A model generated the notes under the pieces. The model was not told the DNA's origin, searched no databases, and saw nothing but the letters and a program-made list of their open reading frames with translations. The translations under genes were made by a program, and so were the position numbers. This document shows positions 1 to 50,037 of a stretch of DNA of 64,000 bases, in pieces. The stretch lies in contig CAVXXT010000008.1 in the NCBI GenBank assembly GCA_963765815.1, forward strand, positions 370,666 to 434,665. Reading direction: 5' to 3'. The DNA is from an uncultured Actinomycetota bacterium. Its GTDB lineage: Bacteria; Actinomycetota; Actinomycetes; BP-191. Numbering within the stretch: position 1 is the stretch's first letter; each line of letters opens with the position of its first letter.

Positions 1-841
1 AGACCCAGTTGTAGCCGGGGCCGCGGAACAGCGAGCCGATGGTCGACAGGATCGCCGCCATGATCACGAACCAGGTGAACAGCATGATCGAGAACTTGCG
101 GTTGGCCGGTCGCATCGACGGGTTCTTGTCGAGGTACGGGAAGGCCATCAGCAGCACCAGGCCCACACCCGGGATGGTCACTCCCGCGATCATCGGGTGG
201 AAGTAGCGCAGCAGCTCCTGGAGTCCCAGGAAGTACCACGGCGCCTTCGACGGGTTGGGCGTCAGGTTGACGTTGGCCAGCTGCAGCAGCGGCGCGTCGA
301 CGAAGGTCGAGAACACCACGAGGAAGACGGTGCACGCCATCAGCGCGACCATCTCCTCGAGCAGCAGGTGTGGCCAGACGTTGACCTTGTCGTCCTGGGT
401 CCGCTCGACCCGCTGGATTCCCTCGGGCGGCACCATCGCCAGCAGCCGGTGCGTCATGCCCTCCGCCGTGCCGCGACCGCCGCCGGTGGCCACCGCCCCA
501 CCGCTCTTGGCCATCGCGGCGGCGACCCGCGCCTGCCGCTCGGCGGGTGAGAGCGCGGTCGGCCGGTCCATCGTCGCGGTCCCGACGGCCGCTGCCGCCG
601 GAGCGGCCGCTGCTGCTGCCGGAGCTGCGGCGGGAGCAGCCGCTGCCGCCGCGGGAGCGGCCTCTGCCGCCGGCTCCGCCGCCGCTGCCGCTGCCGCGGC
701 GCTCGGTGAGGGCACCCCTGCCGCCTTGCGCGCCTTCTTGACGGCCGCTGACTTGGCCTTGGCCCGGGCGACACGGTCGGAGTCGCCCGCGGCGATGGCC
801 GCGTCGTACGTCTCCTGGTCGGGAGTGATCTCCTCGGACAT
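1..841 (-). CDS. Cytochrome b C-terminal-domain / b6f subunit-IV-like membrane protein, 3' end truncated by the window edge. Carries an N-terminal Lys/Ala-rich helix plus an Ala/Pro linker.
   Basis: Absent from the ORF track because there is no stop in the window. Manual minus-strand translation from ATG 841..839 gives [39 protein letters not shown](Ala/Pro run)-...VNVWPHLLLEEMVALMACTVF...NPSKAPWYFLGLQELLRYFHP...FSIMLFTWFVIMAAILSTIG. GAGGA Shine-Dalgarno about 6 nt upstream. Lies directly downstream of the b6-like gene. Confidence 0.8.
   Translation of the reverse strand, partial: MSEEITPDQETYDAAIAAGDSDRVARAKAKSAAVKKARKAAGVPSPSAAAAAAAAEPAAEAAPAAAAAAPAAAPAAAAAAPAAAAVGTATMDRPTALSPAERQARVAAAMAKSGGAVATGGGRGTAEGMTHRLLAMVPPEGIQRVERTQDDKVNVWPHLLLEEMVALMACTVFLVVFSTFVDAPLLQLANVNLTPNPSKAPWYFLGLQELLRYFHPMIAGVTIPGVGLVLLMAFPYLDKNPSMRPANRKFSIMLFTWFVIMAAILSTIGSLFRGPGYNWV
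725..820 (-). other. Copy 1 of a shared 32-aa Lys/Ala-rich module ([32 protein letters not shown]) at the N-terminus of the subunit-IV-like protein
   Basis: 27 of 32 residues identical to the C-terminal module of the second NuoI (45340..45435). About 11 synonymous codon differences at identical residues. Confidence 0.85.
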
Positions 842-889
842 CGGGTCCTCGCTCGGGGCTGGTGGGTGCGGTCGCGGGTCGGGTGGTGG

Positions 890-1702
890 CTACAGCGGGC
901 CGGAGATGCCGCCGTCCTTGCGGATGCGCCAGAAGTGCACGGCCATGAAGATGACCGCGACGAACGGCAGCGCGAGCACATGGAGCACATACCAGCGGAG
1001 CAGGGTCGGCGGCCCGATCTCGACCCCGCCGAGGAGGACGAACCGGACCTCCTTACCGAACACCGGGGTGTAGCCCATCATCTGGGTGCCGACGGCGACG
1101 GCCCAGATGGCGAGCTGGTCCCACGGCAGCAGGTAGCCGGTGAAGGACAGCAGCAGGGTGAGCAGCAGCAGGATGACGCCGACCACCCAGTTGAACTCGC
1201 GAGGCGCCTTGTAGGCACCGTGGTAGAAGACCCGCGCCATGTGCAGGAACACGGTGAAGACCATGGCGTGCGCCGACCATCGGTGCAGGTTGCGGATCAT
1301 CTGGCCGAACGTCACACCGGAGGAGAGCGCCCGGATGTCGGCGTACGCGAGCTCCTGGCCGAAGCCGGCCGACGGCCGGTAGAAGAACATCAGGTAGATG
1401 CCGGTGACCGTGAGCAGGATGAAGAGGAAGAAGCTCAGCCCGCCGAGGCAGTAGGTGTACGTCAGCTTGAGCCCGTGCCGCTTCAGCTTCACCGGGTGCA
1501 GGTGGTAGAGCACGTTGTTCATCGTGGCGAGCGCGCGGTCGCGGGAGGTGTCGCGGTAGCCCGGGCGGTAGATCGAGCCCGGCCGGAAGATGGACTTCCA
1601 GACCTGGCCCTCGCGCGGGTCCCGGGGGGCCGCGAAGTCCTTGACCTGGGCCTGGACTTCCTTGATGCGGTCCTTCGGGCTCGGCCGGTCGGCCACGTGC
1701 AT
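890..1702 (-). CDS. Cytochrome b6-type protein (split cytochrome b, N-terminal haem-binding domain)
   Basis: 270-aa ORF. Two bis-His pairs: RNLHRWSAHAMVFTVFLH (13 residues between) and LHVLALPFVAVIFMAVH (14 between, the b6-type spacing). LLPWDQLAIWAV motif. Confidence 0.9.
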   Translation of the reverse strand: MHVADRPSPKDRIKEVQAQVKDFAAPRDPREGQVWKSIFRPGSIYRPGYRDTSRDRALATMNNVLYHLHPVKLKRHGLKLTYTYCLGGLSFFLFILLTVTGIYLMFFYRPSAGFGQELAYADIRALSSGVTFGQMIRNLHRWSAHAMVFTVFLHMARVFYHGAYKAPREFNWVVGVILLLLTLLLSFTGYLLPWDQLAIWAVAVGTQMMGYTPVFGKEVRFVLLGGVEIGPPTLLRWYVLHVLALPFVAVIFMAVHFWRIRKDGGISGPL

Positions 1703-1741
1703 CTCCTTCGACGTCTGCTGGTGCTCGTGCGCTCGGTGGTG

Positions 1742-2095
1742 CTACTTCTTCTTCTTGGGTGCTGCCTCGCCGATCTTGGAGTAGAAGAGCGCGTACGGCG
1801 GGCAGCGGTCGACGCAGATCCCGCAGCGCGTGCACTCGTTGTCGTCGATGATGAAGATCGCGCCGGCGGTCTCGGCCAGCGTCTTCATCTCCGGGTTCTC
1901 GGCGCCGGCCACGACGTCCGGGGACATCATGTAGATGCACTCCCACGGGCAGACGTCCTCGCAGGCCCGGCAGAGGATGCACAGCTCCGGGGCGAGCGCG
2001 ATGTGCCGCTTGGGCTTGACCCGCTCCTGCAGCCAGTTGGGGTCGACGGTGCCGAGGGTGTAGTCGTCGTAGATCTCGACCCGCGCGTCCGTCAT
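1742..2095 (-). CDS. 2x[4Fe-4S] dicluster ferredoxin
   Basis: Two CxxCxxCxxxCP motifs (CILCRACEDVCP, CTRCGICVDRCP). Start taken at the internal ATG 2095..2093, because the upstream part of track ORF 1742..2365 is Arg-rich and overlaps the next gene. ATGA overlap with the upstream ORF. Confidence 0.85.
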   Translation of the reverse strand: MTDARVEIYDDYTLGTVDPNWLQERVKPKRHIALAPELCILCRACEDVCPWECIYMMSPDVVAGAENPEMKTLAETAGAIFIIDDNECTRCGICVDRCPPYALFYSKIGEAAPKKKK

Positions 2096-2403: not shown

Positions 2404-2586
2404 GACACCGCTCCTCGTCGATGCGGCACGGCATGCCGTGCGTGCTGTACGTCGCGGGCAGGGGCTCCTGCTCGCTGCGATACTACGGGTGTGGGGATTA
2501 CCCCGCGAATCCAACCAGCCCCGCGCGTCGCACGTCGGACGCGCCACTCGACGACGCCGATCCGTGGCGAAGAAGGACCTCTCGGG

Positions 2587-3174
2587 ATGCGGGTCGCCGA
2601 CCGTCGACTGGTCCGCCGGACGGCTGTCGCGGTGGCCTTCCTCGTCGCCACGTCGGCCGGCTGCGAGGGGTCGCGTCGCGAGGTCGACTCGCCGGTGGGC
2701 GGCAGCGGTTTCCGGGTCGGCGACGGCACCGCGACGCTCGTCGCGGCGGAGGACCGGCGCCCGGCGCCGACCTTGCGCGGGACCACCCTCGACGGCGACT
2801 CCCTCGACGTCGCGTCGCTGCGCGGCTCCGTCGTCGTCCTGAACGTGTGGGGGTCGTGGTGCGCCCCGTGCAAGAAGGAGCAGCCGGAGCTGCAGCGGGC
2901 GGCGACCGACCTGGCCGGCGAGGGCGTCAGGTTCGTCGGCATCAACGTGCGCGATCGGACCAAGGGCAATGCCCTCGCGCACAACCGCAGGTACGACGTC
3001 ACCTACCCGAGCCTTTTCGACCCGAGCGCGCGGTTGGTCGCGCGATTCGAGGACCTGCCGCCCAGCGCGATCCCGACGACGGTCGTCATCGACCGTGACG
3101 GCCGGGTGGCCGCGCGGGTGCTGGGGGCGACGTCGTACGACGAGCTGGTCGGCCTGGTCCGGCGCATCGCATGA
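2587..3174 (+). CDS. resA: Thiol-disulfide oxidoreductase ResA/TlpA-like lipoprotein (cytochrome c maturation)
   Basis: WCAPC thioredoxin motif. Signal peptide with lipobox-like SAGC. Start at ATG 2587 (MRVADRRLVRR...). Confidence 0.85.
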   Translation: MRVADRRLVRRTAVAVAFLVATSAGCEGSRREVDSPVGGSGFRVGDGTATLVAAEDRRPAPTLRGTTLDGDSLDVASLRGSVVVLNVWGSWCAPCKKEQPELQRAATDLAGEGVRFVGINVRDRTKGNALAHNRRYDVTYPSLFDPSARLVARFEDLPPSAIPTTVVIDRDGRVAARVLGATSYDELVGLVRRIA

Positions 3175-3190
3175 GCCGTATCTCGTGAGC

Positions 3191-4009
3191 ATGGAGGTCC
3201 TGGCCGGCGTGGGCCAGACGTTCAAGGAGACGGTGCTCGACGGCCCGTTGCTGCTGGCGATGCCGGTGGCGGCGATCGCCGGGCTCGTGTCGTTCCTGTC
3301 GCCGTGCGTCCTGCCGCTGGTGCCCGGCTACCTCTCCTACATCACCGGCCTGTCCGCGGCAGACCTCGAGGCGGCCGGTCTCGACCCGTCGGGCGACGGC
3401 GACGCCGACGACCGGGTGGCGACCAAGGGGCGAGTGCTCCTCGGCAGCAGCCTCTTCGTCCTGGGGTTCTCCGTCGTGTTCGTCAGCTACGGCACGCTGT
3501 TCGGCGCAGCCGGGCGCGCGCTGCACGAGTACGAAGAGACGCTGATCCGGGTCTTCGGTGTGGTGACGATCCTCCTCGGCCTCGTCTTCGCCGGCGTGTT
3601 CACCAAGCTGTCGTTCCTCGAGCGCGACGTGCGCATCCACCGTCTGCCGTCGGCCGGCATCGCCGGCGCGCCGCTGCTCGGCGTGGTGTTCGGCCTCGGC
3701 TGGGCGCCGTGCATCGGGCCGACGCTGGGCGCGGTTCTCACTCTGGCCCTGAGCTCCGACGGCGCCGTGCGCGGTGCCCTGCTCTCATTCGTCTACTGCC
3801 TCGGGCTCGGCGTGCCCTTCGTCGTGACCGGCCTCGCCTTCCGACGGTCGATGTCGGCGTTCGCGGTCGTCAAGCGCAACTACCGCACGGTCATGCGGGT
3901 CGGCGGCGCGTTCCTCGTCGTCATCGGCGTCCTCCAGGTCACCGGGGCCTACAGCCACATCGTCACCGAGCTGCAGACCTGGTACGGCGGCTTCGCCACT
4001 GCGGTATGA
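3191..4009 (+). CDS. ccdA: Cytochrome c biogenesis thiol-reductant transporter CcdA (DsbD family)
   Basis: MEVLAGVGQTF...FLSPCVLPLVPGYLSY...GWAPCIGPTLG (two conserved Cys motifs). Polytopic. Confidence 0.9.
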   Translation: MEVLAGVGQTFKETVLDGPLLLAMPVAAIAGLVSFLSPCVLPLVPGYLSYITGLSAADLEAAGLDPSGDGDADDRVATKGRVLLGSSLFVLGFSVVFVSYGTLFGAAGRALHEYEETLIRVFGVVTILLGLVFAGVFTKLSFLERDVRIHRLPSAGIAGAPLLGVVFGLGWAPCIGPTLGAVLTLALSSDGAVRGALLSFVYCLGLGVPFVVTGLAFRRSMSAFAVVKRNYRTVMRVGGAFLVVIGVLQVTGAYSHIVTELQTWYGGFATAV

Positions 4010-5541
4010 GCGCTCGCACCTCGGCGTGGGTCAGCCTCCGGCAGAGCTGGCGCAGCCTGACCTCGATGCGCACGGCGCTCGTGCTGCTGTTCCTCCTCGC
4101 GCTGGGTGCGGTGCCAGGGTCGCTGCTGCCGCAGGAGCCGCTCGACCCGTTCGCGGTCGAGCGCTACCGCGACGCGCACCGGGTCGCCGGCCGCGTGTAC
4201 GGCGCTCTCGGGCTGTTCGACACCTTCGCCGCCCCGTGGTTCGTCGGCCTCTACGTCCTCATCTGCGTCTCGTTGGTCGGCTGCCTGACGCCGCGCATCC
4301 GGGTGCACGCGAAGGCGCTGCGCGGTCGCCCGCCGGCGCCCCCGCGGGACCTCGGCCGGCTGCCGCGCTCGGCCGAGCTGGTCACGACGGCCGCACCGGA
4401 GGATGCGCTCAAGGCGGTCGCCGCGCGACTTCGCGGCCGGCGCTGGCGCGTCGAGCGCCGCGAGCACGCCGACGGGAGCACCTCGGTCGCCGCGGAGAAG
4501 GGCTACGTCCGCGAGACCGGCAACCTGGTGTTCCACCTGTGTGTGCTCGCGATCATCGGCGGCGTCGCGGTCGGCTCGCTGCTCGGCTACGAGGGCCGCG
4601 CGATCGTCGTGGAGGGCACCGGCTTCACCAACACGGCGGTCGCCTACGACGAGCTCGTGCCCGGCCGGCTCACCGGTCCCGAGGACCTGCCCGCGTTCAC
4701 CCTCACCCTGGACGACTTCGACGCGGACTACCTCGACAACGGCCAGCCGACCGAGTTCGAGGCGTCGGTGCGATACGCCGACGGTCTGGGCGAGCCGACC
4801 CGGAGGGCCCGGCTGCGCGTCAACCACCCGCTCTCGGTCGCGGGCTCGCGCGTCTACCTGCTCGCCCACGGCTACGCCCCGCACATCGTGGTGAGAGACG
4901 TCAGAGGGGCAGTCATCTACGACGAGGTCTCGCCGTTCCTGCCGCGGGACGGCAGCTTCCTGTCGACCGGCGTCATCAAGGTGCCCGACGTCGGCGCCGG
5001 GCTGCCGCAGATCGGCGTACGCGCCGCGTTCCTCCCGACCGTGGACGTCGCCAGGGACGGGCGGCTCTACTCGCGCTTCCCGGACGCGCAGGCGCCGGCG
5101 CTGTCCTACGAGGCCTTCGCGGGCGACCTCGGGCTCGACGCGGGTGTCCCGCAGAACGTCTACGAGCTCGACACCAGCGGGCTGGTCCGCACCGGCGGCG
5201 GCTTCCTCCTGCCGGGGGAGACGAGCGGACCGCTCGCGGGCGGCGCGACCATGACGTTCGTCGGATTCCGGGAGTGGGCGAACATCCAGGTGGCTCGTGA
5301 CCCTGGACAGCGCGTCGTCCTCCTCGCGGCCGTGCTGGCGCTGACCGGGCTGGTGACCAGCCTGCGGGTTCGCCGTCGCCGGTTCTGGGTGCGCGCGCGG
5401 GCCGTCGGCGGAGGTACCGTGCTGGCGGTCGGCGGGCTGCCGCGACGTGACGCGCCGGCCTTCTCGGCGGAGTTCGACTCGCTCGTCGCCGACCTGACCG
5501 CAGCGCTCCCGGCGCCGCCGGATCCGAAGGGAACGCCGTGA
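4006..5541 (+). CDS. resB: Cytochrome c biogenesis protein ResB/Ccs1 (System II)
   Basis: ATGA overlap with the ccdA stop. N-terminus WRSLTSMRTALVLLFLLALGAVPGSLLPQ is typical of ResB. Large extracytoplasmic domain and a C-terminal TM. Confidence 0.9.
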   Translation: MSARTSAWVSLRQSWRSLTSMRTALVLLFLLALGAVPGSLLPQEPLDPFAVERYRDAHRVAGRVYGALGLFDTFAAPWFVGLYVLICVSLVGCLTPRIRVHAKALRGRPPAPPRDLGRLPRSAELVTTAAPEDALKAVAARLRGRRWRVERREHADGSTSVAAEKGYVRETGNLVFHLCVLAIIGGVAVGSLLGYEGRAIVVEGTGFTNTAVAYDELVPGRLTGPEDLPAFTLTLDDFDADYLDNGQPTEFEASVRYADGLGEPTRRARLRVNHPLSVAGSRVYLLAHGYAPHIVVRDVRGAVIYDEVSPFLPRDGSFLSTGVIKVPDVGAGLPQIGVRAAFLPTVDVARDGRLYSRFPDAQAPALSYEAFAGDLGLDAGVPQNVYELDTSGLVRTGGGFLLPGETSGPLAGGATMTFVGFREWANIQVARDPGQRVVLLAAVLALTGLVTSLRVRRRRFWVRARAVGGGTVLAVGGLPRRDAPAFSAEFDSLVADLTAALPAPPDPKGTP

Positions 5542-6512
5542 GCCAGCCCGGACTCGCCGGCCCGAGCGACACGCTGCTCGTCGCCGCCGTCGTGTCCTAC
5601 ACGGTCGCGATGGTCGGCTACGCCGCCGAGCTCGCGTTCGGCTCCCGCGACGCGGGCCTGCCCCCGATCGCGGGCGGCTCGACCGACGTGCTGCCCGAGC
5701 GCTTCGCCGGCCTGGGCGGCACGCGCACGACCGGGACCGGCTGGCCGGTGCGGCTCGGCCGGGCCGCGGTGGCCGTCACCGTCCTCGGCTGGGCTGTCCA
5801 CCTGCTGTCAGTGATCCTCCGCGGACTCGCGGTCGGGCGGGTGCCCTGGGGCAACATGTACGAGTTCTCCTCGGTGGTCTGCCTCGCGGCGGTGACCGGG
5901 TTCCTCGTCCTGATGTCACGCCAGCCGGTGCGCTACCTCGGAGCGGCCGTGATGCTCCCGGTCGTCATCTACCTCGGGCTCGGCACCACCGTCCTCTACG
6001 CCCCGGCTGCCCCTCTGGTGCCGGCGCTGAACTCCTACTGGCTGAAGATCCACGTCGCTGCGGCGGCGACCGCGAGCGGGACCTTCATGGTGGCCTTCGC
6101 GACCACCGTCCTCTACCTGGTGCAGGACGTCCGCGAACGACGTGCGAGCCCGACGCCGGAGGGCACCGCCGGCGCACCGGTCGCCCGCTTCCGCCTGCCG
6201 TCGGCGGCTTCCCTCGACGCGATTGCCTACCGCGTGACGGCGTTCGCGTTCCCCATCTGGACCTTCGCGGTCATCGCCGGCGCGATATGGGCCGAGGCGG
6301 CGTGGGGCCGCTACTGGGGCTGGGACCCGAAGGAGACCTGGGCGTTCATCACCTGGGTCCTGTACGCCGGCTACCTGCACGCCCGGCCGCTGCCGCGCTG
6401 GCAGGGCCGCCGGGCCGCCGTCGTCGGCGTGGTCGCCTTCGTCGCGCTGATGTTCTGCTACTTCGGCGTCAACCTCTGGATCTCGGGGCTGCACTCGTAC
6501 GCCGGCGTCTGA
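5538..6512 (+). CDS. ccsB: Cytochrome c-type biogenesis protein CcsB/ResC (haem-handling, WWD family)
   Basis: GTGA overlap with resB. W-rich motif WGRYWGWDPKETWAFITW. Polytopic. Confidence 0.92.
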   Translation: MSQPGLAGPSDTLLVAAVVSYTVAMVGYAAELAFGSRDAGLPPIAGGSTDVLPERFAGLGGTRTTGTGWPVRLGRAAVAVTVLGWAVHLLSVILRGLAVGRVPWGNMYEFSSVVCLAAVTGFLVLMSRQPVRYLGAAVMLPVVIYLGLGTTVLYAPAAPLVPALNSYWLKIHVAAAATASGTFMVAFATTVLYLVQDVRERRASPTPEGTAGAPVARFRLPSAASLDAIAYRVTAFAFPIWTFAVIAGAIWAEAAWGRYWGWDPKETWAFITWVLYAGYLHARPLPRWQGRRAAVVGVVAFVALMFCYFGVNLWISGLHSYAGV

Positions 6513-27769: not shown

Positions 27770-29069
<1,300 letters not shown>

Positions 29070-42154: not shown

Positions 42155-42262
42155 CCGCTCCGACACGCCACGACGGACGTCGGTCCGGCCGATTCCCGGT
42201 TGCCGCGTCACCCCCGTTAGGATGCCTCGACGCACCCGCTGAGACACCCCTGTAGGGGAGCG

Positions 42263-42646
42263 ATGAGCAACGACTACTTCGCCGACTACACCACGGTCGG
42301 ATCGGTCATCCTGGCCGGCCTGGCGTTTGTGGTGGTCGCCTTCACGGCGGCCCGGCTCGTGCGCCCGACGCGTCCGCGCCGGGAGAAGTACCTCACTTAC
42401 GAGTGCGGGATCGACCCGGTCGGCGTCGGCTGGTCGCAGACGCAGATCCGCTACTACGTGTTCGCTTTCCTCTTCGTCATCTTCGACGTGGAGTCGGTCT
42501 TCCTGTTCCCGTTCGCGACGGTCCTGCGGACCTTCGACGCGGCGGGCGACGGCATGGCCGTGCTGGTCGAGATGGTGATCTTCATCCTGCTGCTGGCCGT
42601 CGGGATCCTCTACGCCTGGAAGAAGAAGGTTCTCGAATGGGTCTGA
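42263..42646 (+). CDS. nuoA: Second-cluster NuoA paralogue
   Basis: [17 protein letters not shown]...[15 protein letters not shown]. Three TMs. Confidence 0.9.
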
Positions 42647-43140
42647 GCGACCAGGTCGAGGTCCCGCAGCCGATCCGCTTCGTCCTCAACTGGGGGCGCA
42701 AGTACTCGCTGTGGGTGTTCAACTTCGGGCTCGCCTGCTGCGCGATCGAGTTCATCGCGACGTCGATGGCCGAGCACGACTTCATCCGCATGGGGGTGAT
42801 CCCCTTCGCGCACGGCCCCCGGCAGGCCGACCTGATGGTGGTCAGCGGGACCCTGACGGACAAGATGGCGCCGGCCGTCAAGCGGCTCTACGAGCAGATG
42901 CCCGAGCCGAAGTACGTCATCTCGTTCGGCTCGTGCGCCAACTGCGGCGGTCCCTACTGGGACTCCTACTCCGTGGCCAAGGGCGTCGACCAGATCATCC
43001 CGGTCGACGTCTACGTCCCGGGCTGCCCGCCGCGGCCGGAGGCGCTGCTCCAGGGCATCCTCAAGCTGCAGACCAAGATCCAGAACGAGTCGCTCAAGCA
43101 GCGCTACTCGGCCGAGCCGCTGACGGTCGAGGCCGGATGA
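42637..43140 (+). CDS. nuoB: Second-cluster NuoB paralogue (N2 Cys ligands retained)
   Basis: ATG 42637 overlaps the nuoA2 end by 10 nt. [29 protein letters not shown]. Confidence 0.9.
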
Positions 43141-43640
43141 CTCCGGAAGAGCTCATCGGCCGATTCATCGCCGAGCTCGGGGACGACGTCGTCGACACCG
43201 AGGTCGCCTACGACGTCGCCACGGTGACCGTCAACGCCGCGCGCTACGCCGACGCGGCGCGGTTCGCCAAGACCACCCGCGGGCTCGACCTGACCTTCTT
43301 CGACTTCCTCACCGGTGTCGACGAGGGTGAGGCCGGCTACGGCGTGGTGACCCACCTCTACTCGCCGATCCACAAGCACCACATCCAGCTGCGCACCGTC
43401 GTGCCCAACGACGCCCCGAGCCTGCCGACGATGACCGGCGTGTTCCGCGGCGCCAACTGGCACGAGCGAGAGACCTGGGAGATGTTCGGCGTCGTGTTCG
43501 ACGGTCACCCCAATCTCGTCAAGCTGCTGCTCCCCGACGAGTTCGAGGGGCACCCGCTGCGCAAGGAGTTCCTGCTCATGAGCCGCGAGGTCAAGCCGTG
43601 GCCCGGGGCGAAGGAGCCGGGCGAGGGGGGCCACGAGTGA
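43137..43640 (+). CDS. nuoC: Second-cluster NuoC paralogue (short, 167 aa)
   Basis: ATGA overlap. [40 protein letters not shown]. Confidence 0.88.
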
Positions 43641-44635
43641 TCGGCGACGTCCTCGACTCCTATGCGTTCGAGCTCACCCTGCGCATCGTCTGCGTGCTCC
43701 TGGTCTTCCTCACGGTCCCGCTGATCGTCGGTCAGATGGAGCACAAGGCGATGGCGCACATGCAGTCGCGCCTCGGGCCCATGTACGCCGGCGGCTTCCA
43801 CGGCTGGGCGCAGCTCGTCGCGGACGGCGTGAAGTTCCTGCAGAAGGAAGACGTCGTCCCGACCAACGCCGACCCGTGGGTGTTCAAGCTGGCGCCGGCG
43901 GTGTCGCTGCTGCCGCCGATGTTCGTGCTCATCGTGATCCCGGTGGGGCCGGACCTGGTCTCCCAGGATCTCGACATCGGCCTCTTCTACGCGCTCGCGA
44001 TCAGCTCGATCAGCGTCCTCGGCATGCTCATGGCCGCGTGGTCGAGCGCCAACAAGTTCTCTCTGCTCGGCGGCATCCGCGGTGCGGCGCAGCTGATCGC
44101 CTACGAGCTGCCGCTGGTGCTCTGTGCCGCGTCGGCGGTGATGCTCGCGGGGACCATGTCGCTCACCGGCATCGTCGAGGCCTGGGAGTGGTGGTGGCTG
44201 CCGGTCCAGGCGGTCGCGCTGTTCATCTTCTTCACCGCGTCGCTCGCCGAGCTGAACCGCCCGCCGTTCGACATGCCGGTGGCCGACTCCGAGATCATCT
44301 TCGGCCACATGACCGAGTACACCGGGCTGCGATTCGCGCTGTTCCTGCTCACCGAGTACGCCGGCATCGTGGTCGCCGGCGGCCTGATCACGGCGATCTT
44401 CCTCGGCGGCTGGCGCGGCCCGTTCTGGGACTCCGTGCAGATCGGCGACGTCTACCCCCTCGGCATCGCCTACACGCTGGTCAAGGTGCTCGCGATCGCC
44501 TTCGTCGTCATCTGGCTGCGGGTCACCTACCCGCGGCTGCGCGAGGACCAGCTGCAGAAGTTCTGCTGGAAGGCTCTCATCCCCCTCTCCCTCGTCCAGG
44601 TCCTGGTGACCGGCTTCGTCACGGTGGTGAAGTAG
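43637..44635 (+). CDS. nuoH: Second-cluster NuoH paralogue
   Basis: GTGA overlap directly with the nuoC2 stop, leaving no room for nuo[56 protein letters not shown]. Confidence 0.9.
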
Positions 44636-44637
44636 CC

Positions 44638-45447
44638 ATGCCAGGAGGCACCGGCCTGCTGAAGGGCCTCACCGTCACGTTCGGCACGATGCTGAAGCGG
44701 TCGGTCACCAAGCAGTACCCCGACGTCCTGCCCGAGCTGGCGCCGCGCACCCGCGGGGTCATCGCGCTGATGGAGGAGAACTGCACGGTCTGCATGCTGT
44801 GCAGCCGCGAGTGTCCCGACTGGTGCATCTACATCGACTCGCACAAGGAGACGGTGCCGCCGAAGGAGCCCGGCGCGCGGGCGCGCACGCGCAACCTGCT
44901 CGATCGCTTCGCGATCGACTTCGCGCTGTGCATGTACTGCGGCATCTGCATCGAGGTCTGCCCGTTCGACGCGCTGTTCTGGTCCCCGGAGTTCGAGTAC
45001 TCCGAGTACGACATCCGCGAGCTGACCCACGAGATGGACCGCCTGCGCGAGTGGATGTACACCGTTCCCGCGCCGCCCGCGCTCGACCCCGACGGGGAGG
45101 AGCCGGCCGAGGTCGCCGCCGCCGCCAAGGCCGAGCCGACCTTCGTCGAAGCAGTCGGCTTCGCCGGAGCACCGGCGCTCGCCGCGGCACCGGCACCGGC
45201 CGCCCTCCCGGCGGCAGCGCCCGCGCCCGCCCCCGAAGCCGCTGCGACCGACGGCCCTGCTGCTCCCGACGGCTCCGCCGCGGCGGCACCGCCCGCCGTG
45301 GCGGCGGAGCCGGAGCACGATATTGGCGAGGTGCAGGTGGACCAGGCGACGTACGACGAGGCGATCGCGGCCGGCCTGCCCGACCGCGTGGCCCGGGCCA
45401 AGGCGAAGTCGGCCTGGGTGAAGAAGGCCCGGAAGGGGCTGCTGTGA
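44638..45447 (+). CDS. nuoI: Second-cluster NuoI paralogue with ~125-aa C-terminal extension (Ala/Pro linker + Lys/Ala-rich module)
   Basis: [21 protein letters not shown]. Two CxxCxxCxxxCP motifs ([24 protein letters not shown]). Then an Ala/Pro-rich run and a terminal [36 protein letters not shown]. Confidence 0.9.
45340..45435 (+). other. Copy 2 of the shared 32-aa Lys/Ala-rich module ([32 protein letters not shown]) at the C-terminus of NuoI2
   Basis: 27/32 identical to 725..820 (minus strand). Confidence 0.85.
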
Positions 45448-45992
45448 CGACCCTCGCCCAGGCGGCGCCCGGCTACGCCGACGTGACCGCGCAGGAAGTC
45501 ATCTTCGTGCTGATGGGCCTGGTCGCCGTCGGCAGCGCGGTTCTCGTCGTCACGACCAAGAACGTCGTGCACGCAGCGCTGTGGCTCGTCGTGACACTCG
45601 CGTCCGTCGCCGGTGGCTACCTGATGCTCACGGCCGAGTTCCTCGCCTGGGTGCAGGTGCTCATCTACATCGGCTCGATCGTCGTGCTGCTGCTGTTCGG
45701 CATCATGCTGACCAAGGCCCCGATCGGCGGCACGGCGGGACTCGACAGCGAGAACCGCATCGCCGCGGGTGTCGTCGCCACTGCTCTCGGCGCGACCCTC
45801 GTGACCCTCGTCGTCGACGCCTTCCGGCACGCCTACATCGACCTCGAGTCGTTCGAGGTCGGCGGCGCGGAGGCGACCGGCACCGCGATCTTCCGGCACT
45901 ACGTGCTGCCGTTCGAAGTCGTGTCGGTGCTGCTGCTCGCTGCGCTGATCGGGTCCATCGTGCTGTCGCGGCGCGACGAGGGAGGTCGCTGA
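45444..45992 (+). CDS. nuoJ: Second-cluster NuoJ paralogue
   Basis: GTGA overlap. [49 protein letters not shown] ... [25 protein letters not shown]. Confidence 0.9.
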
Positions 45993-45993
45993 C

Positions 45994-46362
45994 GTGCATC
46001 TGGTCTACCCGACGGTGCTCGCCGCGCTGCTGTTCGCGATCGGCGTCTACGGCGTGCTCGCCCGCCGTAACGCTGTCCTCGTCCTGATGTCGATCGAGAT
46101 CATGCTGAACGCCGTCAACATCAACCTGGTCGCCTTCAACGCGTGGCTCCAGGACTCGCTGCTCGGCGGTCAGATCTTCGCGCTGTTCGTGGTCGCTGTC
46201 GCCGCCGCCGAGGTCGGCGTCGGCCTGGCGATCGTGCTGCTGATCTACCGCACCAGCGAGTCGGTCGACATCGACACCCTCAACGAGCTCGGCGACAGCG
46301 CGTCGCCCGAGCGCTCCGCAGCGGCCCGCGCCGCCCTCCCGGCGGAGGCCCGCGTCCGGTGA
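45994..46362 (+). CDS. nuoK: Second-cluster NuoK paralogue with short C-terminal extension
   Basis: LFAIGVYGVLARRNAVLVLMSIEIMLNAVNINLVAF...AAAEVGVGLAIVLL, plus a ~30-aa hydrophilic tail. Confidence 0.9.
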   Translation: MHLVYPTVLAALLFAIGVYGVLARRNAVLVLMSIEIMLNAVNINLVAFNAWLQDSLLGGQIFALFVVAVAAAEVGVGLAIVLLIYRTSESVDIDTLNELGDSASPERSAAARAALPAEARVR

Positions 46363-48416
46363 TCGCCTCCACCATGAGCGTCCTGCTCGCTGCCGGCGAG
46401 GACGTCTCCCACCCCGTGCGGCTCGCCGGCACCGGCTTCCAGGACTACGCCTGGCTGATCCCGGTGTTCCCGCTCGTCGCGTTCGTCGTGATCCTCTTCT
46501 TCGGGAAGCGGATCCCCACCAAGGGTGCCGGCGTCGGCATCGTGGCCATCGCCGGGTCGCTGGTCGTCGCCCTCGGCGTCTTCGCCCAGGCCTACTCGCA
46601 TCCCGGGATGGTCGAGGAGAAGAAGCTCGTCCTGACCCCCTTCGGGGACGGGAACCTGACGCTCGGGATGAAGGTCGACGGCCTGGCCGCGCTGATGTTC
46701 GTGATCGTCTGCCTGGTCTCGCTGCTGGTGCAGGTCTACTCGACGTCGTACATGGACGGCGACAGCCGCTACACGTTCTTCTTCGCGATGCTCAGCCTGT
46801 TCACCACCGGCATGCTGATCGTCACGATCGCGGACAACCTCCTGCTCATGCTGGTGGGCTGGGAGATCATGGGTGTCTGCTCCTACTTCCTGATCGGGCA
46901 CTTCTGGGAGGAGACCCCCAACTCCAACGCCGCGATCAAGGCGTTCCTCACCACCCGCGTCGGCGACGTCGGCTTCATGCTCGGCATCTTCGCCCTGTTC
47001 TGGGGGGCGCACAGCTTCGAGTTCACGACGATCATCGAGCACGCCGAGTCCGGTGAGATGGCCCGCGGCTTCCTGGTCGGCGGCACGGTCCTGATCTTCT
47101 TCGGGGCCGTCGGCAAGAGCGCCCAGTTCCCGCTGCACACCTGGCTGCCTGACGCGATGGCCGGCCCCACTCCGGTCTCGGCGCTCATCCACGCCGCGAC
47201 GATGGTCGCCTCCGGCATCTACATGGTTGCCCGGCTCTACCCGGTCTTCGAGCTCTCCGGCGCCGCCCTCAACCTCATCGGGGTCCTCGCCGCGATCACC
47301 ATGACGATGGCCGCCCTGATCGCTCTCGTGCAGGACGACATCAAGAAGGTGCTGGCCTACTCCACGGTCAGCCAGCTCGCCTACATGACGGCAGGCCTGT
47401 CGGTCGGCGGCTACACCGCGGGCTTCTTCCACCTGTTCACCCACGCCGCGTTCAAGGGCCTGCTGTTCCTCGGCGCCGGGTCGGTGATCCACGCGGTGCA
47501 CAGCAACAACATGAGCGAGATGGGCGGCCTGAGGAAGTTCATGCCGCGCACGCACGCGACCTACCTGATCGGGTGCGTCGCGCTCGCCGGCCTGCCGCCG
47601 CTCGCCGGCTTCTGGAGCAAGGACGAGGTCATCCTCGACGCCTACCACGCGGCCGGGTTCGGTGAGTCCCACGAGCAGCTCGCGACCTCGCCCCTCGTGG
47701 GGAAGCTGGTGCTCGCCTCGGCCCTCCTGACTGCGGTCCTCACGGCGTTCTACGTCACCCGCATGTACTGCCTGACCTGGCTGGGGGAGTACCGCGGCAA
47801 GGGCCACCCGCACGAGTCGCCGGCCGCGATGACGGTGCCGCTGATGGTGCTGGCCGTGCCCGCGGCGCTCGGCGGCCTGTGGGGGAGCGGGTTCTGGCCC
47901 GATGGCCACAACATCCAGCGCGTGGTCGCGTTCGCCGGCCAGGGCTACCACGCCCCGGAGCTGCTGCCGGTCGTCGCGGGCACCTCGATCGCTCTCGCGG
48001 TCATCGGGGTCTTCGTCGGCTACGCGATCTACGGCAAGGGCCTGCCGGCGAAGGACCCGACGCTGAACATGGGCTTCCTCACCACGACGCTCGAGCGACG
48101 GTTCTTCCTCGACGACCTCTACCTCAACGGCATCGTCCGGCCGATGCGCGGCTCGATCGCCAACGCGGCCAACTGGCTCAACCAGAACGTGTTCGACGCC
48201 CCGCCGAACTTCGCCGGCAAGGGCGCCGTCGTCGCCGGGCGAGCGGCGTACGCCGTCGACCAGACGCTCATCGACGGGACGGTCAACGGGTCCGGCCGGC
48301 TCTCCGCGCTGGTCGGCCGGGTGCTCGCTCTCGCCCAGAACGGCAACGTCCAGGCCTACGCGACCGGCATGTTCGTCGGCGTCGTCGCGCTGGCCGTCGC
48401 GGTGGCCGCCCTGTGA
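46359..48416 (+). CDS. nuoL: Second-cluster NuoL paralogue
   Basis: GTGA overlap (alternative ATG 46374). WEIMGVCSYFLIGHFW, KSAQFPLHTWLPDAMAGPTPVSALIHAATMV. C-terminal lateral-helix-like region. Confidence 0.9.
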   Translation: MIASTMSVLLAAGEDVSHPVRLAGTGFQDYAWLIPVFPLVAFVVILFFGKRIPTKGAGVGIVAIAGSLVVALGVFAQAYSHPGMVEEKKLVLTPFGDGNLTLGMKVDGLAALMFVIVCLVSLLVQVYSTSYMDGDSRYTFFFAMLSLFTTGMLIVTIADNLLLMLVGWEIMGVCSYFLIGHFWEETPNSNAAIKAFLTTRVGDVGFMLGIFALFWGAHSFEFTTIIEHAESGEMARGFLVGGTVLIFFGAVGKSAQFPLHTWLPDAMAGPTPVSALIHAATMVASGIYMVARLYPVFELSGAALNLIGVLAAITMTMAALIALVQDDIKKVLAYSTVSQLAYMTAGLSVGGYTAGFFHLFTHAAFKGLLFLGAGSVIHAVHSNNMSEMGGLRKFMPRTHATYLIGCVALAGLPPLAGFWSKDEVILDAYHAAGFGESHEQLATSPLVGKLVLASALLTAVLTAFYVTRMYCLTWLGEYRGKGHPHESPAAMTVPLMVLAVPAALGGLWGSGFWPDGHNIQRVVAFAGQGYHAPELLPVVAGTSIALAVIGVFVGYAIYGKGLPAKDPTLNMGFLTTTLERRFFLDDLYLNGIVRPMRGSIANAANWLNQNVFDAPPNFAGKGAVVAGRAAYAVDQTLIDGTVNGSGRLSALVGRVLALAQNGNVQAYATGMFVGVVALAVAVAAL

Positions 48417-48482
48417 CCGCCATGAGTGCCATCAGCACATGCCCCCGTATGGCCGCGTCAAGACTCGAGAGGGACCGCCGAG

Positions 48483-50033
48483 ATGGATGAGTTCTGGCAC
48501 GACTGGGCGCTGACGCTGTCGGTGCTCGTGCCGCTGCTTGGCGCGATCGTCATCGCGGTCACCCCTGCGGCGCAGGAGCGTGCCGCGAAGGGCCTTGCCG
48601 TCGCCTTCTCGCTCGCGACGTTCCTGGTCACCCTCGGCATCCTCGTGGGCTACGACTACGACTTCGCGTCGAAGAGCAGCGACTACCAGTACGAAGTCGA
48701 CTACCAGTGGATCGACGCGATCAACTCGCGCTTTCACCTCGGCATCGACGGGATCTCGCTGCCGCTGGTCGTCCTGAGCGCGCTGCTCACGTTCCTGTGC
48801 GCGATCTACTCGCTGAAGACCATCCCGAACCCCGGCAAGCCTCGGGCGCTGCTCAGCCTGATGATGCTGCTCGAGGTCGGCATGATCGGCGCCTTCGTGT
48901 CGCTCGACCTGCTGCTGTTCTTCGTGTTCTTCGAGGTCGTCCTCGTCCCGATGTTCTTCATGATCGCGATCTGGGGCGGTCCCAACCGCGCCTACGCCAG
49001 CATCAAGTTCTTCCTGTTCACGCTGTTCGGCTCGGCGTTCCTGCTGCTGTCGTTCCTCGCCCTCTACTTCAAGGCGCCGGCCGGCCAGGAGACGTTCGAC
49101 ATGGTCGAGCTGGCGCGCATGGGCGGGGCTGGCGCCTTCGCGGGTGACTTCGGCCTGATCTGCTTCGCCGGGCTGTTCCTGGGCTTCGCGGTCAAGGTGC
49201 CGATGTGGCCGCTGCACACCTGGCTGCCGGACGCGCACACCGAGGCGCCGACCATCGGGTCGGTCCTGCTGGCCGGCATCCTGCTGAAGTTCGGGACCTA
49301 TGGCTTCGTGCGGATCGCGCTGCCGATCCTGCCCGAGGCGGCACACGACTACGCGCCGTGGATCGCGGTGCTGGCCGCGATCGCGATCGTCTACGGATCG
49401 CTCTGCTGCCTGGCCCAGAAGGAGATGAAGCGGATGATCGCCTTCTCCTCCGTCGGGCACATGGGCTTCGTGATGCTCGGCATCGCGACGATGACCCCCA
49501 CCGGCATCAACGCGGCGCTGTTCGGCAACATCAGCCACGGGGTCGTGACGGGCATGCTGTTCTTCATCGTCGGCTCGGTGAAGGACCGCTACCACACCGG
49601 TGACATCGCCGAGATCGGCGGCGGCATGCTGGTGAAGATGCCCTACCTCGCCTCGCTGCTGACGTTCACCGCCATCGCCTCGCTGGGCCTGCCCGGGCTC
49701 GCCGGCTTCTGGGGAGAGGTGTTCTCGCTGCTCGCCGCGTTCGAGCCGGCCGCGGGCCTCAACGTCGCGCTCTTCCGCACGGTCATGGTGTTCGGCGCCA
49801 TCGGCACCGTGCTGACCGCGGGCTACTTCCTCTGGCTGCTCCAGCGGGTCAACCTCGGCGTCGTCCCGGATCGCTGGCGCACCGAGCGGTTCAGCGACGT
49901 GATGGGCATCGAGCTCGCGGCGTGGACGCCGCTGCTGGTGCTGATCCTCGCGCTCGGCGTGTACCCGAAGTTCATCTTCGGCATCACCGACGGCGCGGTG
50001 CAGCACCTGATGACCTCGATCGGCGTCGGGTAG
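48483..50033 (+). CDS. nuoM: Second-cluster NuoM paralogue
   Basis: Start at ATG 48483 (MDEFWHDW...). FFEVVLVPMFFMIAIWGG, KVPMWPLHTWLPDAHTEAPTIGSVLLAGILLKFG. Confidence 0.9.
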   Translation: MDEFWHDWALTLSVLVPLLGAIVIAVTPAAQERAAKGLAVAFSLATFLVTLGILVGYDYDFASKSSDYQYEVDYQWIDAINSRFHLGIDGISLPLVVLSALLTFLCAIYSLKTIPNPGKPRALLSLMMLLEVGMIGAFVSLDLLLFFVFFEVVLVPMFFMIAIWGGPNRAYASIKFFLFTLFGSAFLLLSFLALYFKAPAGQETFDMVELARMGGAGAFAGDFGLICFAGLFLGFAVKVPMWPLHTWLPDAHTEAPTIGSVLLAGILLKFGTYGFVRIALPILPEAAHDYAPWIAVLAAIAIVYGSLCCLAQKEMKRMIAFSSVGHMGFVMLGIATMTPTGINAALFGNISHGVVTGMLFFIVGSVKDRYHTGDIAEIGGGMLVKMPYLASLLTFTAIASLGLPGLAGFWGEVFSLLAAFEPAAGLNVALFRTVMVFGAIGTVLTAGYFLWLLQRVNLGVVPDRWRTERFSDVMGIELAAWTPLLVLILALGVYPKFIFGITDGAVQHLMTSIGVG

Positions 50034-50037
50034 CCCG

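Follow-up and report, generated by a model that had tools for sequence, protein, structure and literature searches.

We found that two short Lys/Ala-rich peptides, encoded in a 64,000-nucleotide stretch of DNA from an uncultured Actinomycetota bacterium (the window) and attached to subunits of two different respiratory complexes, are copies of a previously undescribed, independently folding domain of about 33 amino acids. This identification is well supported, and a docking role for the module is plausible. On the basis of genomic context and charge complementarity, we tentatively favour a fly-casting docking unit for a shared acidic redox partner, probably a ferredoxin. Whatever its function, the family is new, being absent from Pfam and NCBIfam. 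The relevant features of the window are as follows:

1..841, minus strand: PetD/subunit-IV-like gene with the N-type module, cut by the window start (Pfam Cytochrom_B_C, E 9e-10)
506..553, minus strand: second short conserved motif of the N-terminal extension, LSPAERQARVAAAMAK (translation)
554..724, minus strand: Ala/Pro-rich flexible linker of 57 aa, after the N-type module (translation)
725..823, minus strand: N-type module copy, 33 aa, residues 7-39 of the subunit-IV-like protein (translation; HMM E 7e-21)
890..1702, minus strand: cytochrome b6-type subunit of the subunit-IV operon (Pfam Cytochrome_B, E 3e-42)
1742..2095, minus strand: acidic 2x[4Fe-4S] ferredoxin, NuoI-like, 117 aa, with a C-terminal KKKK tail (Pfam Fer4 families)
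42260..51528, plus strand: second nuo cluster, nuoA2-B2-C2-H2-I2-J2-K2-L2-M2-N2 (ORF lists)
44638..45447, plus strand: NuoI2 gene, 269 aa, comprising a 2x[4Fe-4S] core, a linker and the C-type module (translation; Pfam Fer4)
45058..45336, plus strand: acidic Ala/Pro/Glu-rich linker of 93 aa between the NuoI2 core and the module (translation)
45337..45435, plus strand: C-type module copy, 33 aa, residues 234-266 of NuoI2 (translation; HMM E 1e-22)

The first-pass annotation had aligned by hand a 32-aa peptide from each protein, one at 725..820 on the minus strand (residues 8-39 of the PetD/subunit-IV-like protein) and one at 45340..45435 on the plus strand (residues 235-266 of the 269-aa NuoI-like protein). 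Translation of both segments confirmed that 27 of the 32 residues are identical without gaps; at the DNA level, 76 of 96 bases are identical. Synonymous codon differences occur at exactly 11 of the 27 identical residues, where about 11 had been estimated. The same codon is used at the other 16, compared with 17.5 ± 2.1 expected from independent codon draws from the window's codon usage, indicating that synonymous sites are saturated between the two copies, so that recent copying or conversion and misassembly are all ruled out. The proposed conservation at the peptide level was thus borne out. When the window was translated in all six frames and searched with an HMM built from the two copies, these two alone were matched (E 1e-22 and 7e-21), and the next-best match had an E-value of 0.55.

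The module has the consensus [IV]DQE[TV][YF]DxLIAxGxSERxARAKAKAA[WYF]VKK, with D2, G13, R17, A19, R20, K22, A23 and K24 invariant. Both window copies contain all family-defining residues (these and an aromatic residue at position 6), together with the predicted 33-aa helix-turn-helix and the terminal position on a disordered linker that mark the family. Two subtypes were distinguished, Pro1/Ala27 on subunit IV versus Ile/Val1 with Trp/Tyr/Phe27 on NuoI; P0121, the sole subunit-IV protein with Ile1, also has Phe27. AlphaFold2 modelling of the N-type module with a 50-sequence alignment gave a mean pLDDT of 84.8, above 90 in the core of the hairpin, with helices at residues 9-17 and 22-40. The fold is therefore confidently predicted to be a helix-turn-helix hairpin, and the single amphipathic helix suggested earlier was not borne out. 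When three tandem modules were modelled, each was confident, the linkers were below 60 and the pTM was 0.33; tandem modules would accordingly look like beads on a string, and a cis-bundle of them was unsupported.

Helix 1 is acidic (-3), helix 2 carries a charge of +7 with Lys/Arg distributed all round the helix, and every copy has a net charge of +3 to +4. The hydrophobic moment of helix 2 is 0.02-0.19 and its mean hydrophobicity about -0.5; reference values are 0.27 and -0.10 for the MinD MTS, and moments of 0.35-0.45 for melittin and magainin. The near-absent hydrophobic moment makes membrane insertion as an amphipathic anchor, one of the roles first put forward for this segment, unlikely.

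A word-indexed homologue search with a 42-aa module query returned two short proteins only, and an exhaustive search of representative proteins was used instead. Against 1.84 billion representatives (50% identity clusters), the module profile gave 92 matches at E<=1e-3, with the best E-values reaching 1e-36. In 89 of them the module-specific positions are kept, placing the motif above generic Ala/Lys low-complexity matches; the three exceptions (P0045, P0070 and P0072) are eukaryotic or TPR-like repeat proteins. The N-terminal module, at residues 7-40, was present in 115 of 115 N-terminally complete PetD/subunit-IV-like orthologues, and the C-terminal module in 120 of 120 best NuoI2 homologues, with 1-3 copies and usually 2-3 in tandem. 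Its presence in all complete orthologues examined indicates that the module is no lineage-specific accident, and the mirrored placement on flexible linkers, N-terminal in one protein and C-terminal in the other, proved to be both real and general. Several thousand proteins with the module were seen, and the soil Actinomycetota that have it number in the thousands.

Further carriers are NuoC, small membrane proteins and proteins with weak, sub-threshold similarity to PPOX/F420-oxidoreductases. At least one cultured bacterium, Salsipaludibacter albus, has the module on both NuoC and NuoI, which makes experiments feasible. In its NuoC the module is followed by an extremely acidic tail of about 350 aa, and the Pfam label ArfC (PF27542) on this protein appears to mark a further domain at the C-terminus rather than the module. 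P0089 (PPOX-like), P0085 (a small membrane protein) and P0073 (a distant subunit-IV protein) were found on short contigs only, and no respiratory neighbours were seen on the contig with P0050. In the homologous b6 locus of Latescibacterota and Gemmatimonadota, Rieske and ferredoxin-like proteins carry a putative partial version that matches helix 2 alone (profile positions 21-42; 19-29 bits versus a shuffle maximum of 8), with a shorter VDLSxFDxI in place of helix 1. One Latescibacterota locus has this element twice on the Rieske protein and once on the ferredoxin-like protein.

We compared the module with known families. Pfam gave only noise over the module (SHOCT, E 0.041; DUF7218, E 0.12), and its matches on the carriers (Cytochrom_B_C, Fer4 and Complex1_30kDa) all lie off it. 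No NCBIfam model matched the module, coverage being limited to the NuoI core; a profile search of PDB sequences gave only noise at E 1.9, and Foldseek against the PDB with the pLDDT-85 model returned one match at E 8.2. A full-text literature search with module strings found no paper, and nothing specific was found in the literature on the RnfC/RsxC repeats, the FpoI extension or nuoA2/nuoI2. SHOCT (PF09851) is similarly an approximately 28-aa helix-Gly-turn-helix at protein termini with Lys in the second helix, but its match covers 13 residues and is not significant, its conserved positions differ and it is not associated with respiratory subunits. The two-module protein P0008 weakly matched (E 0.019) the extension of the Bacillus-type NuoC model NF005832/PRK07735, which is Lys/Ala-rich and N-terminal; this match is far below threshold and of low complexity. 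The Bacillus nuo operon, too, is not known to contain nuoEFG.

The module had also been likened to the Ala/Lys repeats of RnfC/RsxC. Such repeats were confirmed in the C-terminus of E. coli K-12 RsxC, but the module profile scored them at shuffle level (best repeat, -1.6 bits; shuffled C-terminus, mean -1.7 and maximum 5.8), and homology was rejected. What remains is a likeness in design: the VDPRKAAVEAAIARAKARK repeats are also tandem short Ala/Lys/Arg-rich helical units with polar spacers between them, are found in a membrane redox complex, at the cytoplasmic C-terminal end of one of its Fe-S subunits, and share the hexapeptide ARAKA[KR] with the module. The RsxC unit, however, is a single 18-19-aa helix without the DQETYD..G half of the hairpin.

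The carrier complexes in the window are a complex I without NuoEFG and a haem-cn-type b6c complex that has its own NuoI-like ferredoxin. The full subunit-IV-like protein, P0095 (291 aa), was recovered at 100% identity. Between its module and the membrane domain lies a 91-aa region with an A+P fraction of 0.58 and a net charge of 0; among orthologues the linker varies in length and sequence while the module is fixed. The LSPAERQARVAAAMAK motif of this extension recurs as L[ST]PEER.ARVAAA in distant orthologues (e.g. P0020, P0024, P0029 and P0073) and may be a degenerate helix-2-like element. The adjacent b6-type subunit has its best PDB sequence matches in chloroplast and cyanobacterial cytochrome b6 (E 1e-44), and the haem-cn-binding Cys is kept (YTYCLGG), the window Cys aligning with b6 Cys35. 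In relatives, a Rieske gene (TAT signal, CxH..CxxH) and a CxxCH cytochrome gene follow downstream; the window ends before both. The carrier complex is thus a haem-cn b6-type Rieske/cytochrome b complex, with split b6 and subunit IV, the Cys35 equivalent and, in the relatives, the Rieske and c-type genes.

The ferredoxin gene directly upstream of cytochrome b6 is conserved in relatives and heads the operon in Actinomycetota, and Latescibacterota and Gemmatimonadota have a ferredoxin-like gene in the same b6 locus. The best NCBIfam match of the operon ferredoxin is TIGR01971 (NuoI; E 1e-9, below cut-off). With the tail excluded, it has a net charge of -9 and a pI of 4.4.

The second nuo cluster lacks nuoD, nuoE, nuoF and nuoG; the only NuoD of the window is in cluster 1 (27874..29067). 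The order A2-B2-C2-H2-I2-J2 is the same in eight related loci (tblastn). NuoI2 matches NCBIfam NuoI models below their cut-offs and over the NuoI core alone, and its linker has an A+P fraction of 0.58 and a net charge of -13. In the window, in eight relatives and in S. albus, the module-bearing nuo clusters lack nuoEFG, indicating that this complex I needs a non-NADH donor docking at NuoI/NuoC.

In the mechanism we tentatively favour, disordered Ala/Pro(/Glu) tethers at cytoplasm-facing termini would let the basic hairpin sweep a large volume, capture an acidic soluble redox partner and bring it to the site where electrons enter the complex. This partner would most likely be a ferredoxin, for example the acidic NuoI-like 2x[4Fe-4S] protein at the head of the b6c operon, whose charge of -9 complements the +7 of helix 2. 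In the NuoEFG-less complex the entry site would be the exposed NuoI/NuoC face, where the N-module normally sits; in the b6c complex it would be the cytoplasmic face near haem cn, a proposed acceptor of electrons from ferredoxins (PMC5600118). Both complexes would carry the same module because both use the same partner, and the 2-3 tandem copies on NuoI would add avidity.

The variation of the module across carriers bears on a shared partner. Within a lineage-signature group, modules from different carriers are 0.78-0.80 identical, more than modules from the same carrier in different groups (0.60-0.68), in a comparison that is partly circular because the groups were defined from module residues. 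Such concerted variation is the pattern expected from a shared, co-evolving partner. Direct same-contig pairing covers one lineage (5 contigs) and the NuoC/NuoI pair of S. albus, and within genomes no strict residue-by-residue co-variation between the two copies was seen when looked for. Other observations count against a ferredoxin: the PPOX-like and small membrane carriers have no obvious need for one, and the invariant residues are all explicable by hairpin stability, so that a distinct binding epitope is not evident. A helix-2 version on the ferredoxin-like protein itself, as in Latescibacterota and Gemmatimonadota, fits a ferredoxin receptor poorly.

Comparable arrangements have been proposed in other complex I relatives. 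The flexible Lys-rich C-terminus of NdhS in cyanobacterial and chloroplast NDH-1 is proposed to fly-cast ferredoxin towards NdhI and to hand the captured acidic ferredoxin to the first Fe-S cluster (PMC13249358). Like the module, it is a basic flexible element beside NdhI/NuoI in a complex I without NuoEFG. The two have no sequence relationship, and NdhS forms an SH3-like subunit of its own whose tail is short, whereas the module is a folded 33-aa hairpin that is fused to NuoI/NuoC by linkers of 60-100 aa, often comes in 2-3 copies and is also found on the b6c complex. For FpoI, Welte and Deppenmeier (2011) are said to have proposed a Lys-rich C-terminal extension as a docking site; FpoI has no sequence match to the module, and the NCBIfam FpoI model covers the Fe-S core of NuoI2 alone. 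FpoF-less Fpo of Methanothrix, in which FpoB or FpoI is proposed to accept electrons from ferredoxin (PMC10470525), resembles module-bearing Nuo in being a complex I relative of 11 subunits that has no dedicated input module and would take ferredoxin electrons at the NuoI/NuoB homologues.

The main competing explanation, unlikely in our judgement yet the strongest of the alternatives, is that modules dock to each other. The N-type module on subunit IV would bind C-type modules on NuoI2, NuoC and others, much like the N- and C-terminal docking domains of assembly-line enzymes. The resulting flexible supercomplex or cluster would keep quinone-reducing enzymes tethered to the b6c complex, which oxidises quinol. 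The mirrored orientation on the two complexes, the two systematic subtypes at positions 1/27 and the tracking of the terminal NuoI module by the subunit-IV module within lineage groups are all consistent with such pairing. So is multivalency, given 2-3 copies on NuoI; b6c complexes, moreover, are dimers. The Rieske and ferredoxin-like proteins of one Latescibacterota locus sharing the helix-2 element would likewise suit a like-binds-like contact. Against this, a net charge of +3 to +4 on every copy disfavours self-association, and in the AlphaFold model of a single chain with three C-type modules these take up no fixed positions relative to one another (pTM 0.33). At a finer scale, the subunit-IV change DQETYD -> DPEVLA has no counterpart in the accompanying NuoI module, whether compared within a genome or within a contig, and the difference at positions 1/27 is explicable as an intramolecular contact, as the pairing of Ile1 with Phe27 in P0121 suggests.

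Less likely again is a non-specific polyanion binder, in which the basic hairpin would sit on anionic lipid head groups, nucleoid DNA/RNA or polyphosphate, thereby fixing where the complexes lie, gathering them into clusters or holding soluble carriers at the membrane surface. The charge of helix 2 all round its circumference would suit this, and binding of this kind would bring the soluble carriers (the PPOX-like proteins and, in Latescibacterota, the ferredoxin-like protein) close to the membrane. There is also precedent in actinobacterial proteins for Lys/Ala-rich tails that bind DNA, such as the PAKKA repeats of M. smegmatis Ku (PMC3553676). However, helix 2 offers no membrane-inserting face and integral membrane carriers need no membrane anchor; the strict conservation of the hairpin (D2, Y/F6, G13 and others) and its lineage-specific concerted changes also exceed what a generic charge patch needs.

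We consider it improbable that the hairpin is an intramolecular regulator, folding back as a gate or stabiliser onto the acidic linker or tail to which it is joined, or onto an acidic patch in the complex that carries it. The acidic NuoI2 linker (-13), the Glu/Asp-rich linkers that follow NuoI modules and the acidic tail after the S. albus NuoC module would provide such surfaces, but the subunit-IV linker is neutral, AlphaFold showed no confident packing of module on linker, and near-identical modules on two different complexes would be left unexplained. An artefact or accident (recent duplication, gene conversion, misassembly or a chance Ala/Lys match) has practically no chance: although in contig L001 the b6 operon runs into nuoJ at a junction lying right within the module, this reading is refuted by the saturated synonymous sites, the presence of the module in all complete orthologues checked and profile E-values down to 1e-36 against 1.84e9 proteins, and both copies lie in intact, syntenic genes of one 824-kb contig.

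A wider reading, speculative and in our view unlikely, makes the hairpin the connector of a tether-based respiratory network. The hairpins of NuoI/NuoC, of subunit IV (or, in other phyla, of Rieske) and of soluble redox proteins would then bind either to one another or to a single ferredoxin that all of them share, forming a flexible multivalent assembly that holds quinone-reducing and quinol-oxidising machines together with a low-potential carrier. If so, both complexes would be ferredoxin-linked menaquinone enzymes, which would answer what feeds EFG-less complex I in Actinomycetota and provide a bacterial model for the long-debated route from ferredoxin to haem cn.

The module touches two open questions, namely the electron donor of the many bacterial complex I relatives without NuoEFG and the entry of ferredoxin electrons into haem-cn b6-type complexes from the cytoplasmic (stromal) side. 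The same undescribed domain on both kinds of complex, with a putative partial version in two other phyla, suggests that the complexes share a partner or are physically linked, and the module offers a small, defined handle on that idea.

A side observation concerns assembly. In the metagenome contig L001, the fusion of the b6 operon to nuoJ falls within the module itself, indicating that the module repeat is able to mislead assemblers or to recombine, and that it can chimerise metagenome assemblies.

We located two copies of the module, a basic two-helix peptide of about 33 residues, on two respiratory proteins of the window. The N-type copy lies near the protein start in a minus-strand frame (through 2..892) and is followed by an Ala/Pro-rich stretch and a membrane domain matching Pfam Cytochrom_B_C, i.e. 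PetD/subunit IV; the full-length carrier was recovered from the database (P0095, 291 aa, on an 823,905-bp contig). The C-type copy lies at the C-terminus of NuoI2, the NuoI paralogue of the second nuo cluster.

start 841, running off the window start, minus strand: subunit-IV-like gene (translation and Pfam)
506..553, minus strand: LSPAERQARVAAAMAK, second conserved motif of the subunit-IV N-terminal extension, between the Ala/Pro linker and the membrane domain
44638..45447, plus strand: NuoI2 gene (269 aa), with a NuoI-type 2x[4Fe-4S] core, a 93-aa Ala/Pro/Glu linker and the C-terminal module
45310..45336, plus strand: EHDIGEVQ, acidic motif before the C-type module, conserved in NuoI homologues

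The 32-aa cores of both copies agreed at 27 residues and at 76 of 96 bases, and exactly 11 identical residues used different codons, in agreement with the first-pass count of about 11. With eleven confident window genes as codon usage reference, the same codon occurred at 16 of the 27 shared residues, against 17.5 ± 2.1 expected for two independently drawn codings, indicating that synonymous sites are saturated. Selection on the peptide thus holds the identity, as the first-pass annotation had proposed, and an artefact or recent duplication was excluded. An HMM search of the six-frame translation found no third copy in any frame of the window.

A four-sequence profile was then run exhaustively over 1.84 billion representative proteins, yielding 92 matches at E ≤ 1e-3, of which 16 reached E ≤ 1e-10 and 3 reached E ≤ 1e-30. 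Such a search had been suggested in the first-pass annotation; apart from three repeat-protein false positives among the 92, the matches shared the specific pattern [IV]DQE[TV][YF]DxLIAxGxSERxARAKAKAA[WYF]V[KR]K. Among the 120 best subunit-IV homologues, all 115 N-terminally complete proteins carried the N-type module at residues 7-40, and all 120 best NuoI2 homologues carried the module, as one copy in 9, two in 58 and three in 53, so that the single copy of the window NuoI2 is a minority state. The module is therefore not missing from the complete orthologues examined, the circumstance that would have marked it as a lineage-specific accident. D2, G13, R17, A19, R20, K22, A23 and K24 were invariant in both carriers. 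Named sources were uncultured Mycobacteriales, Frankiaceae and 'Actinomycetes' MAGs, Nitriliruptor and the cultured Salsipaludibacter albus. The module had no match in Pfam, NCBIfam, PDB sequences or Foldseek, its strings were not found by full-text literature search, and no described family includes it. Docking elements that are flexible and charged are a known kind on respiratory complexes; what is new here is a domain family with an unusual distribution over two complexes.

In the three-copy NuoI proteins (P0253-P0334), each tandem copy keeps position-specific identities across genomes (first ..SKAKAAYVKK[EQ]KA, second ..[PT]ERMARAKAKAAYVKKEKA, third ..SKAKAAWVKK[KR]KQ), indicating that the copies are old and individually constrained, not recently expanded. 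In most lineages of the same homologues a short acidic motif, (D/E)[VI]HVE[GA].G, precedes the C-type modules; it is coil in the AlphaFold model and may belong to the functional unit.

We modelled window subunit-IV residues 1-45 by AlphaFold2 with a 50-sequence alignment. The results showed two helices, 9-17 and 22-40, with an AGDS turn between them (mean pLDDT 84.8; 26 residues reached ≥90). For a naturally occurring NuoI tail with three modules, every module was a confident hairpin (pLDDT 90-97), with linkers at 38-60 and a pTM of 0.33, indicating that each module acts as a separate bead on a flexible string. Helix 1 is charged -3 and helix 2 +7. The first-pass reading as a positively charged amphipathic helix held for the charge of helix 2; its hydrophobic moment is only 0.02-0.19 and its mean hydrophobicity about -0.5, which speaks against a membrane-inserting amphipathic helix, and a two-helix hairpin is predicted. 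The open end of the hairpin consistently tells the two subtypes apart: N-type modules have Pro at position 1 and Ala at 27, and C-type modules Ile/Val at 1 and Trp/Tyr/Phe at 27. The sole subunit-IV protein with Ile1 (P0121) has Phe27, consistent with intramolecular contact between these positions.

The modules grouped by lineage signature (AAIAxG..DRVAR, RLIAAGESERTAR or LIAEGKSERIAR), not by carrier. Mean identity was 0.78-0.80 between subunit-IV and terminal NuoI modules of the same group, against 0.60-0.68 between subunit-IV modules of different groups, a comparison that is partly circular because the groups were defined from module residues. In both homologue searches, the groups followed the order of the carrier proteins when ranked by window similarity, and five same-contig pairs confirmed that both carriers co-occur in the window's lineage. 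Mirrored fine-scale changes between copies within genomes were not seen. Together, the lineage pattern and codon saturation indicate either episodic old conversion or co-evolution, mutually or with a common partner.

The gene context of both carriers was as follows.

1..2095, minus strand: part of the b6c operon in the window (also at related loci L005, L015 and L016)
1742..1759, minus strand: ..GEAAPKKKK, basic C-terminal tail of the operon ferredoxin
27874..29067: only NuoD of the window, belonging to the complete first nuo cluster
42260..51528, plus strand: second nuo cluster, nuoA2-B2-C2-H2-I2-J2-K2-L2-M2-N2, without nuoD, E, F or G

The A2-B2-C2-H2-I2-J2 order, without D, E, F or G, was kept in eight related MAG loci (L006-L013). 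NuoD forms the quinone site, and either it is common to both clusters or the second cluster encodes no quinone reductase of the usual type. The subunit-IV gene follows those for a ferredoxin and cytochrome b6, and in relatives with continuing contigs a TAT-type Rieske protein, a CxxCH cytochrome and a membrane protein come after it. The b6 subunit is closest to chloroplast and cyanobacterial b6 (E 1e-44) and the haem-cn-binding Cys is kept; the operon encodes a b6c-type complex. To our knowledge, a ferredoxin as a fixed member of a Rieske/b6 operon is unusual. This 2x4Fe-4S protein has NuoI as its best NCBIfam model (E 1e-9, below cut-off) and is acidic (net charge -9 outside the KKKK tail); relatives' ferredoxins end in similar tails (PKKK, PKKR, AKKH). 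Head-to-head with the operon lie ResA/CcdA/ResB-type cytochrome c maturation-like genes, recognised by motif only (about 2491..6512, plus strand). The LSPAERQARVAAAMAK motif, L[ST]PEER.ARVAAA in distant subunit-IV orthologues, loosely resembles helix 2 of the module.

Beyond subunit IV and NuoI, the module was found at the C-terminus of NuoC (P0028, P0046, P0051, P0059, P0093), at the same end of soluble proteins weakly similar to PNPOx / PPOX-F420 (P0050, P0087, P0089) and on small membrane proteins (P0054, P0068, P0085, P0090). The S. albus nuoA-B-C-D-H-I-J-K-L-M cluster, which lacks nuoEFG, bears one module on NuoC and two on NuoI. A genome scan revealed helix-2-like 16-aa elements in Latescibacterota and Gemmatimonadota, at loci with b6/subunit-IV genes clearly homologous to those of the window. 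There, the Rieske protein carries two copies ahead of its twin-arginine signal, and a nearby divergently encoded 2x[4Fe-4S] protein carries one and shares a ..K(R/P)(P/K)RHIA.. lead-in with the actinobacterial ferredoxin. These elements scored 19-29 bits with the module profile against a shuffle maximum of 8, aligning over helix 2 only. The basic element is thus tied to this b6-complex clade across phyla; its carrier changes while the association persists, which points to a role tied to the complex and not to any single subunit.

By established topology, NuoI and NuoC form part of the cytoplasmic arm, and PetD and Rieske have their N-termini on the n-side. What the data show is a conserved basic hairpin, autonomous and borne on disordered tethers, at those termini of subunits in two menaquinone-linked complexes that face the cytoplasm. 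With NuoEFG missing, complex I would require an alternative donor at the NuoI/NuoC face; the ferredoxin gene that accompanies the haem-cn b6 complex suggests n-side electron exchange; and the acidic ferredoxin and the +7 helix complement each other in charge. We tentatively propose that the module captures, by fly-casting, an acidic redox partner common to both complexes, probably ferredoxin. The missing NuoEFG, the n-side ferredoxin context and the charge fit favour this, as do three precedents: the flexible Lys-rich tail of NdhS in NDH-1 (PMC13249358), by analogy the closest in function as a tethered electrostatic recruiter; FpoF-less Fpo, where FpoI or FpoB is thought to be the ferredoxin entry point (PMC10470525); and ferredoxins as proposed electron donors to haem cn (PMC5600118). 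Direct docking of N-type on C-type modules, linking both complexes, is the main rival and would better explain Latescibacterota, where the ferredoxin-like protein itself bears the element. It is doubtful; C-type modules did not associate in cis in the AlphaFold model, and self-association is disfavoured by their like charges. Non-specific polyanion binding is improbable, and intramolecular regulation via the acidic linkers slightly more so. The RsxC/RnfC repeats to which the first-pass annotation loosely likened the module are real and alike in appearance, but bear no statistical relation to it, and homology was rejected.

A 2.6-kb MEGAHIT contig (L001; ENA ERZ27286124 k141_862314) reads ferredoxin-cyt b6-[42-aa hybrid ORF]-nuoJ-nuoK. 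The hybrid ORF (1658-1786) joins a subunit-IV N-terminus to a NuoI C-terminus, switching at the module start, and from base 1679 on the contig matches a nuoI-nuoJ locus at 91% identity. Chimeric assembly across the repeat is the probable cause, and a genuine recombinant is less likely. The S. albus NuoC (L027 8001-9881, GCA_019798055.1; 626 aa) comprises a 30-kDa domain, one module, ~350 extremely acidic residues and a short C-terminal segment (..GPYGPGSAHPREDGSGPDGHPVKATTDGNVFVTQDSHQW..AWFVDEDAARAAGFEHWD), to which, we think, the precomputed Pfam label PF27542 'ArfC' refers. P0057 (477 aa), with a weak, sub-threshold match to Pfam Polyketide_cyc2 (SRPBCC-type; E 5e-5, 24.1 bits vs cut-off 27.4), contains four degenerate helix-2-like repeats (..DRVQRAKAKSALVKAKR..) with Pro-rich spacers between, suggesting that the basic helix is present on further carriers.
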